Both the position numbers and the translations under genes were made by a program. Shown piece by piece: positions 12,370 through 31,893 of a stretch of DNA of 64,000 nucleotides (within the stretch, counting starts at the first letter, position 1; each line of letters starts with the position of its first letter). Origin of the DNA: Escherichia phage JLBYU40; sequence record NC_105514.1, one strand, 5' to 3'. The notes under the pieces are model-generated. The model was not told the origin of the DNA. It ran no database searches and saw nothing but the letters and a program-made list of their open reading frames with translations.

Positions 12370-12423
12370 TTGACAGTCAAAATAAATTGTCGTTGACAAT
12401 TTGGATGGATTATGTAATAATAT
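12370..12423 (+). promoter_or_regulatory. Promoter with two palindromic TTGACA-containing operator-like sites upstream of the HNH gene
   Basis: Palindromes TTGACaGTCAA (12370-12380) and ATTGTCgttGACAAT (12386-12400), followed by an AT-rich -10 candidate and GGAGGTGAGG RBS. Confidence 0.45.
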
Positions 12424-12440
12424 ATGTATTGGAGGTGAGG

Positions 12441-12893
12441 ATGTCATTCACACAGCAAGAACTTTTAGATAACTTCCGATATGAAGATGGTAAGTTATTT
12501 AGAACTACAGGAAGAAATGCAGGGAAAGAATGTTGTGTTTCTACGGGTAACGGATATTATCGTATATCTCTAGGGAATAGGACTATGCTTCGGCATAGAG
12601 CAATATTTTTAATGCATCATGGATACTTACCTGATTTAGTAGATCATGTGAATACTATAAAAGGTGATGATCGTATTGAAAATCTTAGAGAGCAGACAGT
12701 GTCCGGTAATCTAAGAAATATCAAATATAAGAAAGGAATGCATGTTTACCCTTCTGGTAGTAAGAACTGGCAAGTAGTATTTACTATTAACCGTAAACGT
12801 ATAGTTAAAGGAACATATGACAACTATGAGGTTGCATGTTCTATGGCCAAGATGTTTAGAGGTCAATTATACGGTAGGGAATCAATCCAGTAA
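12441..12893 (+). CDS. HNH homing/nicking endonuclease with AP2-like DNA-binding domain
   Basis: HNH core HRAIFLMHHGYLP...VDHVNTIKGDDRIENLREQTVSGNLRN; start at ATG 12441 after the RBS. Confidence 0.75.
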   Translation: MSFTQQELLDNFRYEDGKLFRTTGRNAGKECCVSTGNGYYRISLGNRTMLRHRAIFLMHHGYLPDLVDHVNTIKGDDRIENLREQTVSGNLRNIKYKKGMHVYPSGSKNWQVVFTINRKRIVKGTYDNYEVACSMAKMFRGQLYGRESIQ

Positions 12894-13428: not shown

Positions 13429-16215
13429 GTGTTTTCAATCCTACAAGGTCATGCAGGATTTCATCGCGATTTAGCCACAGGCAATTGGCGAGAAGTTAAA
13501 GCAGAAGACTATCTTTTTGCTAAAAGATTTTCCTCAAAGCATCCTGAAGGTAAACCAGCTTCAATGCCCTTCAAGTTTGATGTAATTGATGAAGTTGATC
13601 CTCAAACCCTAGTAGAAATGCTTCCTCTTATGAGACGTTTAACGTCTGACCCTCATATCGTTGCGGTACGAGGTCGATGTCTTGCACCTAAAAATAATGT
13701 GCGACGTAAGAAGGGCAACTTTAATGTATCTAACCCAAGTCATATAATTGCAATGGACGTGGATGGTATTGTAGATACAGGTGGTTGTAACAAGTTTGAT
13801 CTTGTTGGCATGGCCCGACATATTATTAGGATGTTAAATAGTATTAGTGAGGATATGTTTCCTCTTGATGCAGGGTTTATCGCTCATGCATCATCTTCGG
13901 CTGGGCTAAAACCAGGTATCCGAATGCACTTAATACTAGAATCTAATGTTAAAGTAACTCAGGGTCAAATCAAGTTCTTATTTACATCTATCAATGAAAG
14001 TAGTAGACAAAAGTATGGCTTTGATATTGCCGACTTAGCTTATTACTCTTCCGTACAGCTCCATTATTTTGCAGATCCGTTATTTACAGATGGTATAGTA
14101 GATCCGTTTAAAGCGGAGGGTGCTTCACGTCTGGTATTTGTTAAGGGTTCTAAAGTAAATTTACCCAATAATCTGGTTGACTATGAAACAACTAGAGGCG
14201 AGTTTAAAGAGGAGTTTTACTCTTTACTCGATCAAATTAAAGGTAAAAAAGCCGCCTCCGATAAAGTAGAGGAAACTATCAGCGAACTAGAAGAAGCTGA
14301 GGATGGAGTGTATCTACGTATTATTCCTAAACTCTATCACAGGGCTTTAGAGGATGGTGTTGATTTTGCATGGCTAGAAAAAGAAATCCGTCCAGCCTTA
14401 TCAGAGTATATTGCAACTAAAGATAATAGTCGTAATATTCAAGACTACTTTAACAACGGTCGTAAGCAGGCTCTGAAAGCGTTTGTTAATAATTCTAAAC
14501 GTGATATACCGGATGTTTTAAAAGGTATTCCACTTAAAAAGCTAGAAACTAACTCTCTAGAGACTGATAACTTCTTGAAATTAAATACTGTACCACCAGA
14601 AGGTTATATGACTTTTGTAAAAGCAAGTCTAGGTACAGGTAAAACTACGGCGGTTGTGCGTTGGCTGGATTCAGGAGTTATTAAGGGTAATTTCTTAGCA
14701 ATTACCAATACTAGGGCACTAGTGTCTTCAAATGCTAAGAAATTTAGTGCAGGACAATATGATAAGTCTGTAGATATGCTTAATTTTAAGCGCGGTGCTA
14801 TTGACCGTATGTCCACAACTATTCACTCTTTACATAAGTTCAAGAGTTTTATTGGTCAAATTGATGCAATCTTTATCGATGAATGTGATGCTGTAATGAA
14901 TGACCTATTATTCGCCCCGGTTGTTAAGCAACGTCGCGAGTGTATTCAGGTTCTTCGGGATATTCTTGCAACTGCAAAAATCATTATATTATCTGATGGT
15001 GATATTAGTGCTGAAACAATTGAAGCATATGGTTCTTTGATTGAGTTTGATAAACCGGTTGCATTTTATAATCATCACCGTAAGATGCTGTCAAAAGCTC
15101 ATGCTTATGAGTTCCCTGATGAATCTAGTATTTGGGTTGCACTTCAGACTTCTCTAGAGATGGGTGAGAAATCTATTCTGGTATCTGACTGTGGGCCGGA
15201 TGAGCTGAATGAGAAGGGCATGGCATTGCGTCATAATACGGGTGCATTAGTTAAGGAAATCCACTCAAACTCTACGTCTGATGTAGATATTAGACGTATC
15301 CTGGATTACACAACTAATGAGTTAATTGACCAACAAATTGATTGCTTATTATGTAGTCCATCCGTAACGAGTGGTGTTGACTTCAACTATTTTGATAACG
15401 TATTCGTTATTACTAGAACCAGTAATCAGGCGCCAAACATGCGTTTCCAAGCAATCAGGCGCGACCGTGGTGCTCAGAACATCTATTATTTTATTGATAA
15501 ATCCACTAGTGGATTCTCCGCAGGTTCCGAACAATATAATATTGATGAAGGTTGGCTGGAGTTAGCACAGCAATTATACGCACGTCGCAGAGAGCTAGAA
15601 TCTAGGAACTATACTAGTACTTTACGTTATTACTTGCTTGATCAGGGTGCAACTATTGATATTTTCAGCGAAAGCTGGGGAACTATTGAAGGTGCTGGTA
15701 AAGAGTACACAGAAGAGCGAATTAAAGCTATTCTACATTCAACTCCGGATTATTGTGCTCCACGTCATGCGGATGCGTATGAAGCTAAACTACTTCTTGT
15801 TCGCTATTATCATCTCGAGTCTATTAAAGATGTAACAGTTGAGCATGTTGAACAATATATCAAAGATAAACCAAATGATCGAGCTGCATTCTTCCATAAG
15901 ATGCATGAGATGTTCTGGGAAGATATTAAGAAGTGTTCAAATGTGACCATTAAACCATTCATAGAAGCTCTGAAAGGTAAGAAGAAGGATTTCTTCCTTA
16001 AAACAGGTCAGAGTGCTAACCCAAAATATGCTAGAATGTATCTTGGTATGATGGGTATTGGTAAGGATATGAACACTGAAAATATTGTAGACTGGTACAG
16101 AACCTATTGTAAAATCGAGTGTATGCCAATTCCTTTCAAATTCATGACAGAGGAAGAGAAGGCTATGGCAGAAGAAGTAATGTCCGAACTTGGAGCAACC
16201 AATGAAGATGCATAA
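13429..16215 (+). CDS. Primase-polymerase (AEP)-helicase fusion; putative replication initiator/origin-binding protein
   Basis: N-terminal AEP motifs IIAMDVDGIVD and IRMHLILES; Walker A SLGTGKTT and Walker B IFIDECDAV. Start placed at GTG 13429 after CAGGAG RBS (ORF-track start 13351 sits in a promoter-like TTGACA). Confidence 0.65.
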   Translation: MFSILQGHAGFHRDLATGNWREVKAEDYLFAKRFSSKHPEGKPASMPFKFDVIDEVDPQTLVEMLPLMRRLTSDPHIVAVRGRCLAPKNNVRRKKGNFNVSNPSHIIAMDVDGIVDTGGCNKFDLVGMARHIIRMLNSISEDMFPLDAGFIAHASSSAGLKPGIRMHLILESNVKVTQGQIKFLFTSINESSRQKYGFDIADLAYYSSVQLHYFADPLFTDGIVDPFKAEGASRLVFVKGSKVNLPNNLVDYETTRGEFKEEFYSLLDQIKGKKAASDKVEETISELEEAEDGVYLRIIPKLYHRALEDGVDFAWLEKEIRPALSEYIATKDNSRNIQDYFNNGRKQALKAFVNNSKRDIPDVLKGIPLKKLETNSLETDNFLKLNTVPPEGYMTFVKASLGTGKTTAVVRWLDSGVIKGNFLAITNTRALVSSNAKKFSAGQYDKSVDMLNFKRGAIDRMSTTIHSLHKFKSFIGQIDAIFIDECDAVMNDLLFAPVVKQRRECIQVLRDILATAKIIILSDGDISAETIEAYGSLIEFDKPVAFYNHHRKMLSKAHAYEFPDESSIWVALQTSLEMGEKSILVSDCGPDELNEKGMALRHNTGALVKEIHSNSTSDVDIRRILDYTTNELIDQQIDCLLCSPSVTSGVDFNYFDNVFVITRTSNQAPNMRFQAIRRDRGAQNIYYFIDKSTSGFSAGSEQYNIDEGWLELAQQLYARRRELESRNYTSTLRYYLLDQGATIDIFSESWGTIEGAGKEYTEERIKAILHSTPDYCAPRHADAYEAKLLLVRYYHLESIKDVTVEHVEQYIKDKPNDRAAFFHKMHEMFWEDIKKCSNVTIKPFIEALKGKKKDFFLKTGQSANPKYARMYLGMMGIGKDMNTENIVDWYRTYCKIECMPIPFKFMTEEEKAMAEEVMSELGATNEDA

Positions 16216-16720
16216 ACCAATGCCTCCTATGGCATTTATCCTAGAAAAGCTTAGGTATGACGAAAGTACTGGGGACTTAATTTGGTTATCTGGCCCAAGG
16301 AAGGGAAAGATAGCGGGCTCCAAAATGAAAACTGGGAGACAGTTAGAGTTTATGATAAATGGAGAGCATACAGCTTACTTAGCCCATAGAATAATCTGGT
16401 TTATAAAGACAGGCGAAGATCCTGGAGATAAAACTATCGACCACAAAGACGGTGATAGTTTAAACAACTTGTGGGATAATTTACGTAAGGCTACCTATTC
16501 CGAAAATGGAAAGAATAAGAAGTGTTCTACTAATTCTACCGGATTCACTGGAGTTGTAAAACGAGGTAATAGGTATATGGCCTACGCTTACTGCAATGGA
16601 AAACAGCATATTTTTGGTAGACGAGATACCCCGGAAGAAGCCCATCAGCTATACCTTAGGGGAGTTAAAGAACTGTTTGGTGAATTTAATCCCTCGGAGA
16701 GATATGACAGTGAAGAATAA
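16202..16720 (+). CDS. HNH homing/nicking endonuclease with AP2-like domain
   Basis: AHRIIW...IDHKDGDSLNNLWDNLRKAT plus GFTGV...RYMAY; start at ATG 16202 after GGAG. Confidence 0.75.
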   Translation: MKMHKPMPPMAFILEKLRYDESTGDLIWLSGPRKGKIAGSKMKTGRQLEFMINGEHTAYLAHRIIWFIKTGEDPGDKTIDHKDGDSLNNLWDNLRKATYSENGKNKKCSTNSTGFTGVVKRGNRYMAYAYCNGKQHIFGRRDTPEEAHQLYLRGVKELFGEFNPSERYDSEE

Positions 16721-19521: not shown

Positions 19522-20493
19522 ATGACTAATGTAAAAGAATTTATCAAACGTTGCCAAGAAGCGTATTACCAGGGAATGTCTTTAATTTCTGACGAAGAAT
19601 ATGATCGTCTGATTAAAAGATTTCCGTTAGAAGAAGAGATCGGGCCTAAGGGTGATATTCCACATCTGTACCGTATGTATTCTTTACAGAAAGTTTATTA
19701 TAACCGTGGGGATAAACCACCATTTAATCCTTTAGGTCAGGTAGAAACTGATAAGTTAGATGGTTGTGCAATTTCTCTGCTATATATTAATGGCGAATTT
19801 GTTCAAGCATTAACCCGTGGTAATGGTATTCTGGGGAATGATGTCACAAGCAACGTAAGATTGCTGAACATCCCTAAAAAGATTTCCCAAAAAGTACCTA
19901 CCCAAATCACTGGTGAAGTTCTAATTACAAAGGAAGTAGAAAATAAGCGTAACTTTGCCTCTGGTGCTATTAACCTCAAAGATAGCGATGATTTCGTACA
20001 ACGTATCGGGGAAGGTGGTTTAATCTTCGTTGCATATGGTATCCAGTGTTCCCCTGATTCTGTAGGTATTACAGAATCGTATTTAAAAGATATGCTTTGG
20101 CTAGAGAATGAGAACTTCTTAACAGTTGTTAATGTGCGTTCCTTCTTTAAGTGGATTCCGACGGATGGTAAAGTTGTTCGTATTAATGACAACAACAAAT
20201 TCTTCCGAGAAGGCTGGACTAATAAATTCCCCCGTGGAGCATTTGCTATTAAAGAGGATGAAGAAGGCGAGATTACAACTCTTACTAAAGTTGAGTGGCA
20301 GGTAGGGGCTTCTGGTAAAGTAACTCCAGTTGGTTATTTCGAACCGGTAATTATTGATGATGCTACAATTGTTAAAGCGACTCTTAATAACGTTGATTAT
20401 ATTAACTCTCTCGATCTAGAGATCGGTTGCCAGATTCGAGTGATTCGTGCTGGTGGTGTAATCCCGTGTATAGTAGAGCGAGTATACGATTAA
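19522..20493 (+). CDS. ligA: NAD-dependent DNA ligase, N-terminal (adenylation/OB) fragment
   Basis: Adenylation motif KLDG in ETDKLDGCAISLLY; 323 aa, no Zn-finger/BRCT. Confidence 0.8.
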   Translation: MTNVKEFIKRCQEAYYQGMSLISDEEYDRLIKRFPLEEEIGPKGDIPHLYRMYSLQKVYYNRGDKPPFNPLGQVETDKLDGCAISLLYINGEFVQALTRGNGILGNDVTSNVRLLNIPKKISQKVPTQITGEVLITKEVENKRNFASGAINLKDSDDFVQRIGEGGLIFVAYGIQCSPDSVGITESYLKDMLWLENENFLTVVNVRSFFKWIPTDGKVVRINDNNKFFREGWTNKFPRGAFAIKEDEEGEITTLTKVEWQVGASGKVTPVGYFEPVIIDDATIVKATLNNVDYINSLDLEIGCQIRVIRAGGVIPCIVERVYD

Positions 20494-20695: not shown

Positions 20696-21475
20696 ATGAA
20701 AATCGAAATTCCAACACAATGTCCCTCTTGTGGTTCTAAGCTAGATCTTGTCAACGGACAATTATTCTGTCGTAATAAGTCCAACTGTCCAGCGCAATCA
20801 AGTAAGTTAATTGAGAACTTCTGTACAAAAATGAAGTTAAAGGGCTTTGGCCCGAAAACTATTGAGAAGCTGGAGCTGACGAAGATTTCAGAACTATTTT
20901 ACCTAGCCGAAGAAGCTTTGGTTAGAGCCGTGGGTAGCAAGGTTGCCGCTAAGTTAATTAGCGAATTAAATACTAAAGTTCGCGGAGACATTGACTTTGG
21001 TTCAGTTCTCGGTTCTTTAGGAATCCCTCTAATTGGAGAGGTTGCAGCAAAGAAATTATCCCAAAATTGCACCAGTTTTCACGATGTGAAGGCTGATGGC
21101 AAAGCTGGAGAAAACTATAAAGCCTGGCTAAATTCCCCACAAGGCAAGGATGTTATCGAATTACCGTGGAAATTCACAACTGGTATTAAAGGTGCTAAAA
21201 CTGAGGTCATCATCACTGATGGTCTAGTAGCCCAACCAAATGGAATCACGGTGTGTATTACCGGATCTTTGCAAGATTTTGCAAATCGAACGGATGCAAC
21301 AAACTATTTAGAAGGTCTAGGATATACGGTTAAGAAATCCGTTACCAAAGATGTCAAATACCTAATCTGTGAGGATGAATCAAAACGTTCTTCCTCATCT
21401 TATAAGAAAGCCGAAACGAATGGGATAGAAATCCTGTCGATTAAAGAACTATTGGAGAAAAATAATAATGTCTAA
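20696..21475 (+). CDS. ligB: NAD-dependent DNA ligase, C-terminal (Zn-finger/HhH/BRCT) fragment
   Basis: Four-Cys Zn finger CPSCGSKLDLVNGQLFCRNKSNCP and C-terminal BRCT-like GITVCITGSL; ATG 20696. Confidence 0.8.
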   Translation: MKIEIPTQCPSCGSKLDLVNGQLFCRNKSNCPAQSSKLIENFCTKMKLKGFGPKTIEKLELTKISELFYLAEEALVRAVGSKVAAKLISELNTKVRGDIDFGSVLGSLGIPLIGEVAAKKLSQNCTSFHDVKADGKAGENYKAWLNSPQGKDVIELPWKFTTGIKGAKTEVIITDGLVAQPNGITVCITGSLQDFANRTDATNYLEGLGYTVKKSVTKDVKYLICEDESKRSSSSYKKAETNGIEILSIKELLEKNNNV

Positions 21476-23790: not shown

Positions 23791-24677
23791 GTAGAATAAC
23801 AGAACTACTTGATCTGAAAGGCATTGAATATAAAGACACAGGTGGGGACATCCTCATCTGTTGTCTCAATCCAGATCATGACGATAAACACCCAAGTTTG
23901 CGTATTGACCCTGAAACAGGTATTATGCACTGCTTGAGTTGTGGCTTCGGTAAAGGTATACCGAGCATTTACCACTATTTTAATGAGACTCAGTACCGAC
24001 AGTCCCCAAGGCTATCGCAAGTACGTAAAAAGATTTCAGAGATTAGGAATGGATCAACGAATCTTGCAATTCCTGAATCTGCTTGCCTTTTCGAAGGTGA
24101 TTTCCGAGGTATAAGTTCTAAGACCTTGAAGAAATATTTTGCTTTCCAACACCAAGCAGACTGGGAAGGCAGAATTGTATTCCCAATCACAGATGCTGTT
24201 GGACGCAATATCCTATTTTTGGGTCGTTCTATAAACAGTTCTGCCCCTCCTAAATACTTAGTAAAACCAAAACAAGTTTCACCGCCAATTTTTCCTGTAC
24301 GATATAATACTCCAGTCCTTATTCTAGTTGAAGGCATCTTTGATATGCTGAACCTAGAGGATAATGGTATAGACTATGCTTCTTGCTGCTTTGGTACACA
24401 TCAGTTTACTTCGGATAACATTGCAGATAAGTTCAGTCCTTATATTATTGCCGGTGTAAAAGTTGTTGTTATCTTACTAGATAATGATGCTTCTGGTAAT
24501 AAAGCTGCACAAGCATTGGCCAAGCTAATTCGTACAAAAACGCGTTTAACACCTATAGTTGCTAACTTTCTTCTGCCTGAAGGTAAAGACCCTGGTGACT
24601 TAAATAAAGAAGAGATTGATATGTTAGCAAAACGTATTGAAATTTTAGTTGCTGAATCGCTTAAAGATTTGGTATAA
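23787..24677 (+). CDS. DnaG-like DNA primase
   Basis: Zn-binding CCLNPDHDDKHP...HCLSCG and TOPRIM residues in LVEGIFDM and LLDNDASGNKAA. Confidence 0.75.
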   Translation: MSRITELLDLKGIEYKDTGGDILICCLNPDHDDKHPSLRIDPETGIMHCLSCGFGKGIPSIYHYFNETQYRQSPRLSQVRKKISEIRNGSTNLAIPESACLFEGDFRGISSKTLKKYFAFQHQADWEGRIVFPITDAVGRNILFLGRSINSSAPPKYLVKPKQVSPPIFPVRYNTPVLILVEGIFDMLNLEDNGIDYASCCFGTHQFTSDNIADKFSPYIIAGVKVVVILLDNDASGNKAAQALAKLIRTKTRLTPIVANFLLPEGKDPGDLNKEEIDMLAKRIEILVAESLKDLV

Positions 24678-29366: not shown

Positions 29367-29651
29367 ATGCTTACAGAGCCTGATGCTCACCAATTATTGG
29401 TCGGTTCCTCATTCATTTTGAATGAATCAACAATAGTTGATAATCCAAATAAATTGTCTAATAGACAACTGGCAGAATATCTAGGAATTTTAAGTCTACG
29501 AAATTATGCCGAATACAAGTTTACAAACGATCCTAGTTTGGACATACAATATGTTCCAGTATGGATACCACGGTTAGTAATCGACACTAACCCACTAATC
29601 GCAATTAACAAATCGAAATTAATCTTTAAAGAGGAAATAAAATATGGCTAA
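29367..29651 (+). CDS. Hypothetical protein (94 aa)
   Basis: ORF only; poor RBS. Confidence 0.3.
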   Translation: MLTEPDAHQLLVGSSFILNESTIVDNPNKLSNRQLAEYLGILSLRNYAEYKFTNDPSLDIQYVPVWIPRLVIDTNPLIAINKSKLIFKEEIKYG

Positions 29652-30417
29652 GTCTTGGGGCGAAACTACTGGCGGTTCTAACGATAAAATCGAATTCCTG
29701 AAGTTCAACAACGGTATCACTCGTGTTCGTATCGTTTCTGGTGTTCTTCCACGTTATGTCTATTGGCTGACTAATAAAGAGGGTAGCGTAGCTCCTTTCG
29801 AATGTCTCCGTTTTAACCGCGACAAAGAGAGCTTTGTTCGTGGTAAAGCTGATCCGGTTCATGAGATGGGCTTCTTTGAGAAAGAGCTGGATAAAGATGG
29901 TAATCGAGTTCCGCTGAAACCGAAGAAAAACTATATCGCTTTTGTTATCGACCGTTCTGATAACAAACTGAAAGTAATGGAAGTCAAAGCTACTATTCTG
30001 AAAGGCATCCAGTCTATCATGAAGCAGTTGAATCTGGCAACTCCGTTTGATATTGATATTTCTATTGAGAAAAAAGGCAAAGGTTTCGATACTGAGTATG
30101 ATGTACAGCAGATTGCTGCTATGCAGTTCCAGATTAAGCTGCAAGATCCTAACAGTGCGGAATCTAAGCAATATGCTGCGGATGTAGATCTGATTGGTGA
30201 AGCTATGTGTGATGAAGATGGCGACATCATTAAGTTCGAAAAAGTTCCTTCTCTGGAGCAAACATATCCGGTTCCTACCTATGAAGAGCAGAAAGAAGCA
30301 ATTCAAGCCTTCATGGAAGGTCGTGAGAATAAAGATGATGATGCCAAATCTGGTAACAGCAATGCTGGTTCCCAGAAAGGTATTGACCAAGAAGCTGCAA
30401 GCGATCTGGACGACTAA
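29644..30417 (+). CDS. Putative ssDNA-binding protein with acidic C-terminal tail
   Basis: C-terminus ...EAASDLDD typical of phage SSB tails; host-optimal codons; AAGAGGAAA RBS. Not confirmed by search. Confidence 0.4.
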   Translation: MAKSWGETTGGSNDKIEFLKFNNGITRVRIVSGVLPRYVYWLTNKEGSVAPFECLRFNRDKESFVRGKADPVHEMGFFEKELDKDGNRVPLKPKKNYIAFVIDRSDNKLKVMEVKATILKGIQSIMKQLNLATPFDIDISIEKKGKGFDTEYDVQQIAAMQFQIKLQDPNSAESKQYAADVDLIGEAMCDEDGDIIKFEKVPSLEQTYPVPTYEEQKEAIQAFMEGRENKDDDAKSGNSNAGSQKGIDQEAASDLDD

Positions 30418-30424
30418 TAAATAG

Positions 30425-30446
30425 AGGGGCTTCGGCCCCTTTTCTT
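30425..30446 (+). terminator. Intrinsic terminator with UUCG tetraloop
   Basis: AGGGGC-ttcg-GCCCCT followed by TTTCTT. Confidence 0.7.
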
Positions 30447-30454
30447 ATATCTTT

Positions 30455-30932
30455 ATGATTACACAAGATAGACTTAAAGAGCTATTGGACTATGATCCTC
30501 TAACTGGTGTATTTAGATGGAAAGTCTCAAGGGGAAGAGTATCAAAAGGCTCCATAGCAGGGACGGAAGTATGGGTATCTGATAACTATATCAGATTGGA
30601 AATCCGAATTGATGGTAAAAGGTATAAAGCACATCAGCTAGCTTTCCTATATGTGTATGGATACATTCCAGAAGAAATCGACCATAAGGATAGGAATCCA
30701 TTAAATAATGCCATAGATAATTTACTAGACTCTTCTAAGTCACGCAATCAGTTGAAATAGAAACAGGAATAGTAATAAAGAATTACCAAAAGGTGTTTTC
30801 TTAAAACATTCAACTGGTAGGTATTTTGTTCAAATTAAAGGTAAGCATTATGGATATACAGATTCCATACATGAAGCAGAGACTGTAGCAAATGCAGTAT
30901 ATGATAGTCTATTAAGTGAAAATACTATTTAG
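30455..30932 (+). pseudogene. HNH endonuclease interrupted by a +1 frameshift
   Basis: Frame A (30455-30760) has the HNH core HQLAFLYVYGYIPEEIDHKDRNPLNNAIDNL; the AP2-like domain GVFLKHSTGRYFVQIKGKHYGYTDSIHEAETVANAVYD continues in the +1 frame (30756-30932). Confidence 0.6.
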
Positions 30933-31893
30933 TGCTGATCATCATATTAAGCTGGGCCAAGATAAAATACCCAAAGAATGGCAGAAGCGTCGCTTCCTGA
31001 TGCTAGGAGAACGGTTAAATGATATATTCCATAATCATAACTGTGATCTTCATATTGCTGGTGGTGATATACTTGATGTTGCCGATCCGTCGTCAGAAGA
31101 AATAGAGCTGCTTGAACAGTTCATGTCAAGACTCGACCATCCAGGCAAAATCTTTACTGGAAATCATGAAATGTTAACTAAAACCATTTCATGTCTATAT
31201 CATTATGCAGGAGTTATTAATAAAGTAACGAGTGGTAAGTGGGAAGTAATTACCAAACCATATCGTTCCCCTGAATTTGATATTGTTCCATATGACGAAA
31301 TCCATAAATCTAAGTGGAAACCATCTGAATCAAAACTATGTTTCACACATGTTCGTGGTGAAATCCCTCCACATGTAAAACCAGAAATTGATCTAACTAA
31401 ATATAACTGTTATGATACTGTAATTGCTGGCGATTTACATTCTTATACTAATAGCCAGACTATCGGATCTACTAGACTTCTCTACCCAGGGTCTCCATTA
31501 ACTACATCGTTCCATAGAGAACGCACAAAAGGTACAAATGGTTGCTTTATCATTGATACCGACACATTAAAAGTAGAATGGATTGAACTCGGTGATTTAC
31601 CACAACTGATTCGTAAAACAATCGGAGCTGGTGAAGAGATGGAACCTAGTGATTACGATCGTGTAGTATATGAAGTTACTGGTGACGTTGTTCAGTTAAA
31701 GTCAATCAAAGACTCTGATTTATTAGATAAGAAAATTAACCATCGAGTTACTAAAGACGCTAAGTTAAATCTTGTTGATCTTGATATGCTAGGCGAACTT
31801 GAACTTTACTTCCGTGAAGTCGAGAAGCTATCTCAAGGCGACATTGATAGAATCTTGGCTAGAGCTGCGAAATATGTCAAAGATTACAATTAA
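30916..31893 (+). CDS. SbcD/Mre11-like nuclease
   Basis: Calcineurin-like phosphoesterase motifs ADHH, GGDILD, GNHE; GTG start. Confidence 0.85.
   Translation: MKILFSADHHIKLGQDKIPKEWQKRRFLMLGERLNDIFHNHNCDLHIAGGDILDVADPSSEEIELLEQFMSRLDHPGKIFTGNHEMLTKTISCLYHYAGVINKVTSGKWEVITKPYRSPEFDIVPYDEIHKSKWKPSESKLCFTHVRGEIPPHVKPEIDLTKYNCYDTVIAGDLHSYTNSQTIGSTRLLYPGSPLTTSFHRERTKGTNGCFIIDTDTLKVEWIELGDLPQLIRKTIGAGEEMEPSDYDRVVYEVTGDVVQLKSIKDSDLLDKKINHRVTKDAKLNLVDLDMLGELELYFREVEKLSQGDIDRILARAAKYVKDYN

Follow-up and report, generated by a model that had tools for sequence, protein, structure and literature searches.

A single-nucleotide insertion that probably inactivated an HNH-AP2 type homing endonuclease gene at the D12 start codon of Escherichia phage JLBYU40

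The DNA analysed here (64,000 nucleotides of Escherichia phage JLBYU40, hereafter the window; the genome carries accession OK272480, PMC12695862) comes from a T5-like phage (Tequintavirus). The gene order D10 helicase, small ORF, D11, D12 (SbcD-like) and D13 (SbcC-like) is that of the annotated relatives, with a DNA identity of ∼96%. The features of the locus are collected in Table 1. The D11 product is 99.6% identical to D11 of T5_ev219 over its full length. The hairpin behind D11 lies 12 nt 5' of the endonuclease ATG and recurs in each of the 17 related loci spanning the junction, with or without an endonuclease gene; in the VAH1 record it is labelled as a terminator. In these loci the next start codon, that of D12 or, if there is one, of an endonuclease gene, follows the hairpin after 12–13 nt, and no Shine-Dalgarno sequence lies between the two. 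A promoter scan yielded 6 promoter-like sites against 6.8 expected in shuffled sequence and provided no evidence for a promoter of the endonuclease gene.

The endonuclease gene is spread over two reading frames. Frame A is opened by the ATG at 30455 and closed after 101 codons by the TAG at 30758–30760; its product ends in ...SRNQLK* and is identical to GenBank entry UGO56005.1, 'putative HNH endonuclease [Escherichia phage JLBYU40]'. The +1 frame has a TGA just upstream (30753–30755), is open from 30756 up to the TAG at 30930–30932 (58 codons), and overlaps the start of the D12 ORF (GTG at 30916, 325 aa) by 17 nt. The initial annotation had described the HNH core and an AP2-like part of one endonuclease as lying in different frames, with a stop at 30758–30760 in frame A and a continuation from 30756 in frame +1, in a gene between an SSB-like gene and sbcD whose 3' end runs over the start of the latter. 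Translation confirmed the stop and the continuation, the coordinates proved exact, D11 and D12 are the neighbours with the GTG at 30916 inside the overlap, and both pieces match one family profile, as set out below.

Table 1. Features of the D11–D12 region of phage JLBYU40, in window coordinates.
Feature	Position	Strand	Description or basis
D11 gene (in relatives: single-strand DNA-binding protein)	29644..30417	+	Intact 257-aa ORF, upstream neighbour
Terminator-like hairpin GGGGC-UUCG-GCCCC with T-run	30423..30442	+	Terminator scan; directly after D11
Endonuclease 5' fragment	30455..30760	+	101 codons and TAG; N-terminal beta domain and HNH core (beta-beta-alpha-metal)
Mobile insert (not found in phages without an endonuclease gene here)	30459..30919	+	Alignment with Bf23 and SA001
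Lesion AAA (AA in intact alleles)	30755..30757	+	DNA alignments
Endonuclease 3' remnant, +1 frame	30756..30932	+	58 codons and TAG; interdomain linker and divergent AP2-type domain
D12, SbcD-like nuclease subunit (325 aa, MKILFSADHH...)	30916..31893	+	ORF list; relatives annotate the same start

The two pieces were compared with protein profiles and structures. On the phrog_99 (HNH endonuclease) profile, the 5' piece matches positions 108–203 (E=3e-40) and the 3' piece positions 204–261 (E=1.7e-4). Judged by these matches, the pieces are successive segments from a single protein family, far beyond what would be expected by chance. Pfam HNH_3 (PF13392) was detected in the 101-aa ORF at residues 57–99 with a score of 50.3 bits (cut-off 24.8, E=1.9e-13). 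A family profile of 72 aligned sequences (71 homologues and the repaired window protein) matches I-HmuI (1u3e) at positions 41–107 (E=1.9e-9) and plant AP2/ERF structures at positions 107–162. The best of the latter was WRI1 (7wq5, E=3.3e-10); other structures (7et4, E=2.2e-5; 1gcc, E=6e-3) followed, with TEM1, ERF096 and AtERF1 among the matches. Pfam AP2 (PF00847) recognises 46 of the 72 aligned sequences individually, whereas the C-terminal piece of the window alone gave no match to it at E≤0.1. The label AP2-like, as used in the initial annotation, therefore stands at the level of the family profile (46 of 72 members, and 7wq5) and not on the window sequence alone. A sub-threshold Pfam match of the C-terminal piece to PL28 was dismissed as spurious.

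The AF2 model of an intact homologue (97% identical, pLDDT 88) consists of an N-terminal beta domain followed by a beta-beta-alpha finger at 74–101 (strands 74–77 and 90–93, helix 95–101), a low-confidence linker (102–113), and three strands with a long helix (114–155) in the AP2 topology. A Foldseek search of the PDB with the whole model returned I-HmuI (1u3e) as top match (probability 1.00, 97 columns), and the AP2 domain of TEM1 was matched weakly (E=4). The intact gene thus specifies 158 residues, with an I-HmuI-like N-terminal domain and His-Me nuclease core (1–101), a linker and an AP2-type domain (114–155); the HNH and AP2 parts share one polypeptide in the 158-aa relatives and not in the window. 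Intact relatives have all of the motif residues D76, H77, N85, N89, N98 and N101, and of these the window product has lost N101. In the family profile match, D76-H77 and N98 align with D74-H75 and N96 of I-HmuI; from the roles of the I-HmuI residues we take them to be the probable general base and metal ligands.

Two other HNH_3 paralogues, both intact, are present in the window at 12387–12893 (168 aa) and 16190–16720 (176 aa). Two HNH genes of T5_ev219 (1204–1752 and 23805–24335 of LR597655.1), one beside RNase H and the other lying between DnaB-like helicase and primase genes, have no counterpart in the window; both show 50–54% identity to the N-terminal portion of the broken gene. Related HNH genes are found at differing sites, and T5-like phages thus hold a family of endonuclease genes at variable positions.

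An intact 477-nt ORF of 158 codons is annotated at the locus in phB7, slur09, KookSpook and VAH1. The DNA alignment of the window with these four relatives contains one gap only, in the A-run at 30755–30757, where the window reads TTGAAATAG and the relatives TTG-AATAG; written out further, the relatives have TTG-AATAGAAAC and the window has TTGAAATAGAAAC. Ten more intact alleles were drawn from an NCBI assembly, ENA metagenomes and Logan assemblies, and all 14 have TTGAATAGAAAC at the lesion site. The intact alleles are read as TTG-AAT-AGA and the window as TTG-AAA-TAG, that is, codon 101 changes from AAT (Asn) to AAA (Lys) and is followed by an in-frame TAG. Asn101 is one of only three positions that are invariant in the 72-sequence family alignment. 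The nearest intact alleles differ from the repaired window gene by just 3 substitutions in 477 nt, and the protein of the VAH1 clade is only 77% identical, yet in frame. In the protein database, 158-aa forms at ≥90% identity make up clusters of 28 and 3 members, with 4 VAH1-like ones in addition, and one exact 158-aa allele (P0118) was by itself read on 16 contigs. Across the protein database and Logan, the 101-aa form was found in JLBYU40 and one Logan contig only.

Because the 14 alleles, the VAH1 clade included, are in frame and the family alignment is unbroken at the site, the in-frame state is ancestral and the extra A derived. It is a single derived 1-nt insertion, unique to JLBYU40 among the alleles compared. 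A comparison with intact homologues had been proposed as a check in the initial annotation, which left a decaying homing endonuclease, a sequencing error and frameshift-regulated expression as explanations; with 14 alleles in frame and the window alone carrying the extra A, the comparison favours the first of these.

Two substitutions are specific to the window and absent from 13 close intact alleles (the divergent VAH1 sequence was not itemised). The A>G at 30766, 9 nt downstream of the insertion, results in K104R, and the T>C at 30647 is synonymous. The extra A and the A>G at 30766 are two private changes within 10 nt, and might stem from a single local mutational event.

An error of sequencing or assembly would mean that the phage truly has AA and an intact 158-aa gene, the extra A being an artefact of the consensus. 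The frameshift is seen in one deposited genome only, the extra A falls within a short A run, and the window-specific A>G at 30766, only 9 nt away, could hint at a locally poor consensus. However, a separate Logan assembly of run SRR25464455 reproduces both the extra A and the A>G at 30766: contig SRR25464455_10 (1183 bp) is 100% identical to window positions 30406–31588. A literature search turned up no paper on this run. It may be the read set of the GenBank record itself, in which case the contig excludes an error of the assembler, while reads that are wrong systematically or a variant in the minority would still be conceivable. To our knowledge, a homopolymer of 2 to 3 bases is not an error hot-spot on Illumina, the platform of the sister phages. 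Phages JLBYU37, 41 and 60, which have neighbouring accessions and belong to the same batch, were sequenced on an Illumina iSeq 100 (PMC10373560), and by analogy JLBYU40 itself was presumably sequenced on Illumina as well.

The quality of the assembly over a longer distance was assessed from a tblastn comparison of the 67 annotated T5_ev219 proteins with the 64-kb window. Sixty-two of them have a counterpart and align in a single frame; 60 do so over the full length and two end 3 or 7 residues early at the C-terminus, and the shortened SbcD call of T5_ev219 itself aligns to the window from query residue 10. As for the remaining five, three are without a match and two are endonucleases that match only paralogues, their own positions being empty; none is split. 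For the 62 proteins with a counterpart, no other frameshift was found across the 64-kb window, so the assembly is not indel-prone. With an identical Logan assembly and 62 unshifted genes, a sequencing error is largely, though not fully, excluded, and we consider it unlikely.

The same comparison covers the NAD-dependent DNA ligase, which is present as two ORFs (19522–20490 and 20696–21472) with a gap of ∼200 nt and is labelled 'subunits A and B' in T5_ev219. Both ligase ORFs align full-length with those of T5_ev219, so this is a feature shared by the group and not a lesion of JLBYU40. Contig 10 of SRR25464455 ends just before the hairpin and again inside D12; its shortness may reflect several related T5-like phages in the run (graph branching) or low coverage.

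The distribution of the gene points to a mobile element. The insert is present in 7 of 430 matching T5-like records, the carriers matching the 801-nt query over 799 or 800 nt each; of the other 423 records, the 33 listed match at the flanks only, with 41–43% of the query matched. The insert measures 461 nt in the window and 460 nt in the intact relatives, and separates the ATGA at which D12 originally started from the remainder of D12. Since (A)TGA is repeated at both ends, the boundaries of the insert are ambiguous by 3–4 nt. In all 12 loci without the endonuclease gene ATGAGAATATTATTTAGTGCTGATCATCAT follows directly after the hairpin; these empty loci read hairpin-TTTCTTTTTAAnnnATGAGAATATTATTTAGTGCTGATCATCAT, and D12 begins at that ATG (MRILFSADHH). 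The junction, ATGA followed by GAATATTATTTAG, is identical in 12 of 12 loci without the insert; the empty junction reads TTATGAGAATATTATTTAGTGCTGATCATCAT, and phages T5 and BF23 lack the gene. The gene is sporadic at a fixed position in collinear genomes and has a precise empty site, a distribution like that of homing genes. On this comparative evidence we classify the locus as a probable free-standing HNH-AP2 homing endonuclease gene (HEG), carried by a small minority of T5-like phages.

In the carriers ∼460 nt stand directly after ATGA, and the endonuclease ORF therefore begins at the former ATG of D12. The new start of D12 lies within the last 17 nt of the endonuclease gene, as ATG-AGA in VAH1 and as GTG-AAA in the clade of the window, where the N-terminus of D12 shifts from MR (MRILFSADHH) to MK (MKILFSADHH). 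In intact relatives the HEG thereby uses the ATG and leader that were originally those of D12, and D12 restarts, at a GTG or an ATG, inside the 3' end of the HEG. In its own frame the GTG of D12 is immediately preceded by TAA, and no recognisable Shine-Dalgarno sequence is found in front of it. The RNA fold around this GTG is no stabler than that of shuffled controls (z = +0.2), which provides no evidence for a structure that sequesters the start. D12 could plausibly be coupled in its translation to the endonuclease gene.

The D12 frame of T5_ev219 (LR597655.1, from 30999) breaks after ∼102 codons (...HYAGVIIR*), and the record annotates just a 233-aa C-terminal SbcD. This break is either an indel error of the assembly or a sign that D12 is dispensable, and as such bears on the weight to be given to a polar effect on D12.

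The insertion of a single A into AA, to give AAA at 30755–30757, replaces Asn101 by Lys and ends translation at the TAG at 30758, leaving the linker and the AP2 domain stranded in the +1 frame without a start codon. The truncated product stops at the last residue of the helix of the beta-beta-alpha finger. Its loss of the AP2-type part suggests that the 101-aa product very probably no longer recognises its target and so no longer homes, which would be an early step in the cycle of gain, decay and loss that is usual for selfish endonuclease genes. The frame of the 3' remnant contains no ATG, GTG or TTG, and no ORF of at least 30 aa is listed there; the AP2 remnant is therefore not expressed on its own. 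Independent expression of this piece was ruled out on the same ground. Amber suppression was likewise rejected, as read-through of the TAG at 30758 in frame A meets three more stops within 7 codons. Ribosomes would stop 155 nt before the GTG of D12, so any translational coupling between the HEG and D12 would be lost.

On the best reading of the locus, which we judge likely, a selfish HNH-AP2 homing endonuclease gene has recently been inactivated by a genuine insertion of 1 nt. The term decay refers here to a single event, because the gene has one lesion only, with no second stop or indel. Residues D76, H77, N85/N89 and N98 are retained, and judging from these the truncated product may have residual non-specific nuclease or nicking activity.

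The position of the break bears on the question whether a 101-aa HNH-only protein is retained for use without the AP2 domain, for instance as a non-specific or nicking nuclease, as a dominant-negative 'immunity' factor against incoming endonucleases, or to tune down D12. The frameshift coincides exactly with the domain boundary, where the helix ends and the low-confidence linker has yet to begin, so that folding of the N-terminal module could still be possible. Most residues of the catalytic motif have been kept, as have the start of the ORF and its leader. Yet the truncated form is known from one isolate only and so gives no sign of spread or selection, the Asn101 that it lacks is invariant in the family, and the substitutions are too few for a test of purifying selection. 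Moreover, HNH/AP2 frameshifts in phage ICP1 have already been read as inactivation (PMC10448857). A functional truncation is thus, in our estimate, very unlikely.

With an inactivating insertion as the preferred reading, the geometry of the site calls for consideration of programmed +1 frameshifting, which the initial annotation had listed as frameshift-regulated expression. On this view the site would be a 'shifty stop': while AAA occupies the P site and UAG the A site, some ribosomes would slip to AAU and go on to AGA, so that full-length endonuclease would be made at a low level and the coupling to D12 restored. The frames overlap only at the last sense codon, AAA (30755–30757), after which the stop follows, because the TGA at 30753–30755 closes the +1 frame just upstream; this geometry fits a programmed shift. 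The tRNA-Lys is slip-prone, and +1 shifts are promoted by stop codons, as in prfB. Nevertheless, none of the relatives compared has the shift, the 14 alleles all being in frame down to the 77%-identical VAH1 clade, and the 20 nt upstream (CGCAAUCAGUUG) contain no Shine-Dalgarno-like (GGAGG-like) stimulator. The fold of 30720–30830 is unexceptional (z = −1.6, with 15 of 200 shuffles as good or better), re-pairing from AAA to AAU results in a mismatch at the third position, and the first codon of the +1 frame, AGA, is a rare codon in E. coli. Any single A insertion at this place would by accident produce the same geometry. With every relative in frame and a stimulatory element absent, frameshift-regulated expression is unsupported and appears extremely improbable. 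It is just as hard to credit the more elaborate arrangement in which AAA-UAG at the domain boundary yields for the most part a harmless 101-aa HNH-only protein, with a trickle of full-length enzyme from rare +1 slippage that re-couples the D12 gene lacking a Shine-Dalgarno sequence. If it were true, a frameshift would link the expression of a selfish nuclease to that of its host gene.

Read as an inactivating insertion, the locus is of little import for biology at large; such endonuclease genes are common in the T5-like phage family, and JLBYU40 would offer a snapshot of a selfish HEG just after its first disabling mutation. In practical terms, the 101-aa JLBYU40 product now annotated as 'putative HNH endonuclease' should carry a label that marks it as a fragment or a pseudogene with a frameshift. 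Since the HEG sits on the D12 start and the GTG of D12 lies in the 3' end of the HEG, JLBYU40 is a natural mutant for the question whether D12 is coupled to the HEG. The intact and broken alleles differ by ∼3 substitutions and the indel, and thus represent a near-isogenic pair for homing assays.

Several known systems share parts of this arrangement. The prfB gene, encoding RF2, has the same succession of a sense codon, an in-frame stop and a +1 continuation; unlike prfB, the JLBYU40 shift is not conserved, has no Shine-Dalgarno stimulator upstream, and involves poor re-pairing of tRNA-Lys on AAU. The free-standing Seg and Mob endonucleases of T4-like phages spread by 'intronless homing', Seg being of the GIY-YIG type and Mob belonging to a different HNH lineage. 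Like these, the JLBYU40 locus has a selfish gene between conserved genes, with a presence/absence polymorphism and use of host-gene signals for expression, and the expected target is the empty junction of genomes without the gene. The difference with Seg and Mob is that the gene downstream of the insert at the JLBYU40 locus has lost its start codon and leader to the insert, whose 3' end provides it with a new start.

I-HmuI of Bacillus phage SPO1, an HNH nicking enzyme (1u3e), is intron-encoded and binds DNA with C-terminal helical and helix-turn-helix modules. The N-terminal beta domain and His-Me finger of the JLBYU40-type protein resemble those of I-HmuI both in profile and in fold, and the motif DH...NN...NL...N..N is common to the two; in contrast to I-HmuI, the protein of this locus is encoded by a free-standing gene and ends in an AP2-type domain. 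That combination corresponds to HNH-AP2, a recognised class of homing endonucleases in phages, cyanobacteria and ciliates (Magnani, Sjolander & Hake 2004, as cited in PMC10448857), although the AP2 segment of the window itself is too divergent for Pfam AP2.

The closest parallel is found in the 'IPA-HNH' genes of the Vibrio phage ICP1, which likewise combine an N-terminal HNH with a C-terminal AP2 part and are free-standing near essential replication and repair genes. The presence of these and other HNH-AP2 genes varies among close relatives, as it does here. In ICP1 gp115/gp116 the HNH and AP2 parts are separated by a frameshift (Barth et al. 2023, PMC10448857), a lesion of the same kind as the split described here, and in sets of closely related phages it is routine for homing endonuclease genes to be frameshifted, truncated or missing (Barth et al., PMC10448857). 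The systems differ in that JLBYU40 belongs to the Demerecviridae (T5-like) and its insertion site is the D12 start codon, and in that its HNH part is a canonical match to Pfam HNH_3, whereas the ICP1 genes are too divergent for that profile. The JLBYU40 case is thus a new instance, in a T5-like phage, of a known phenomenon and not a new phenomenon, with the geometry of the insertion at the D12 start codon as a mildly notable extra.
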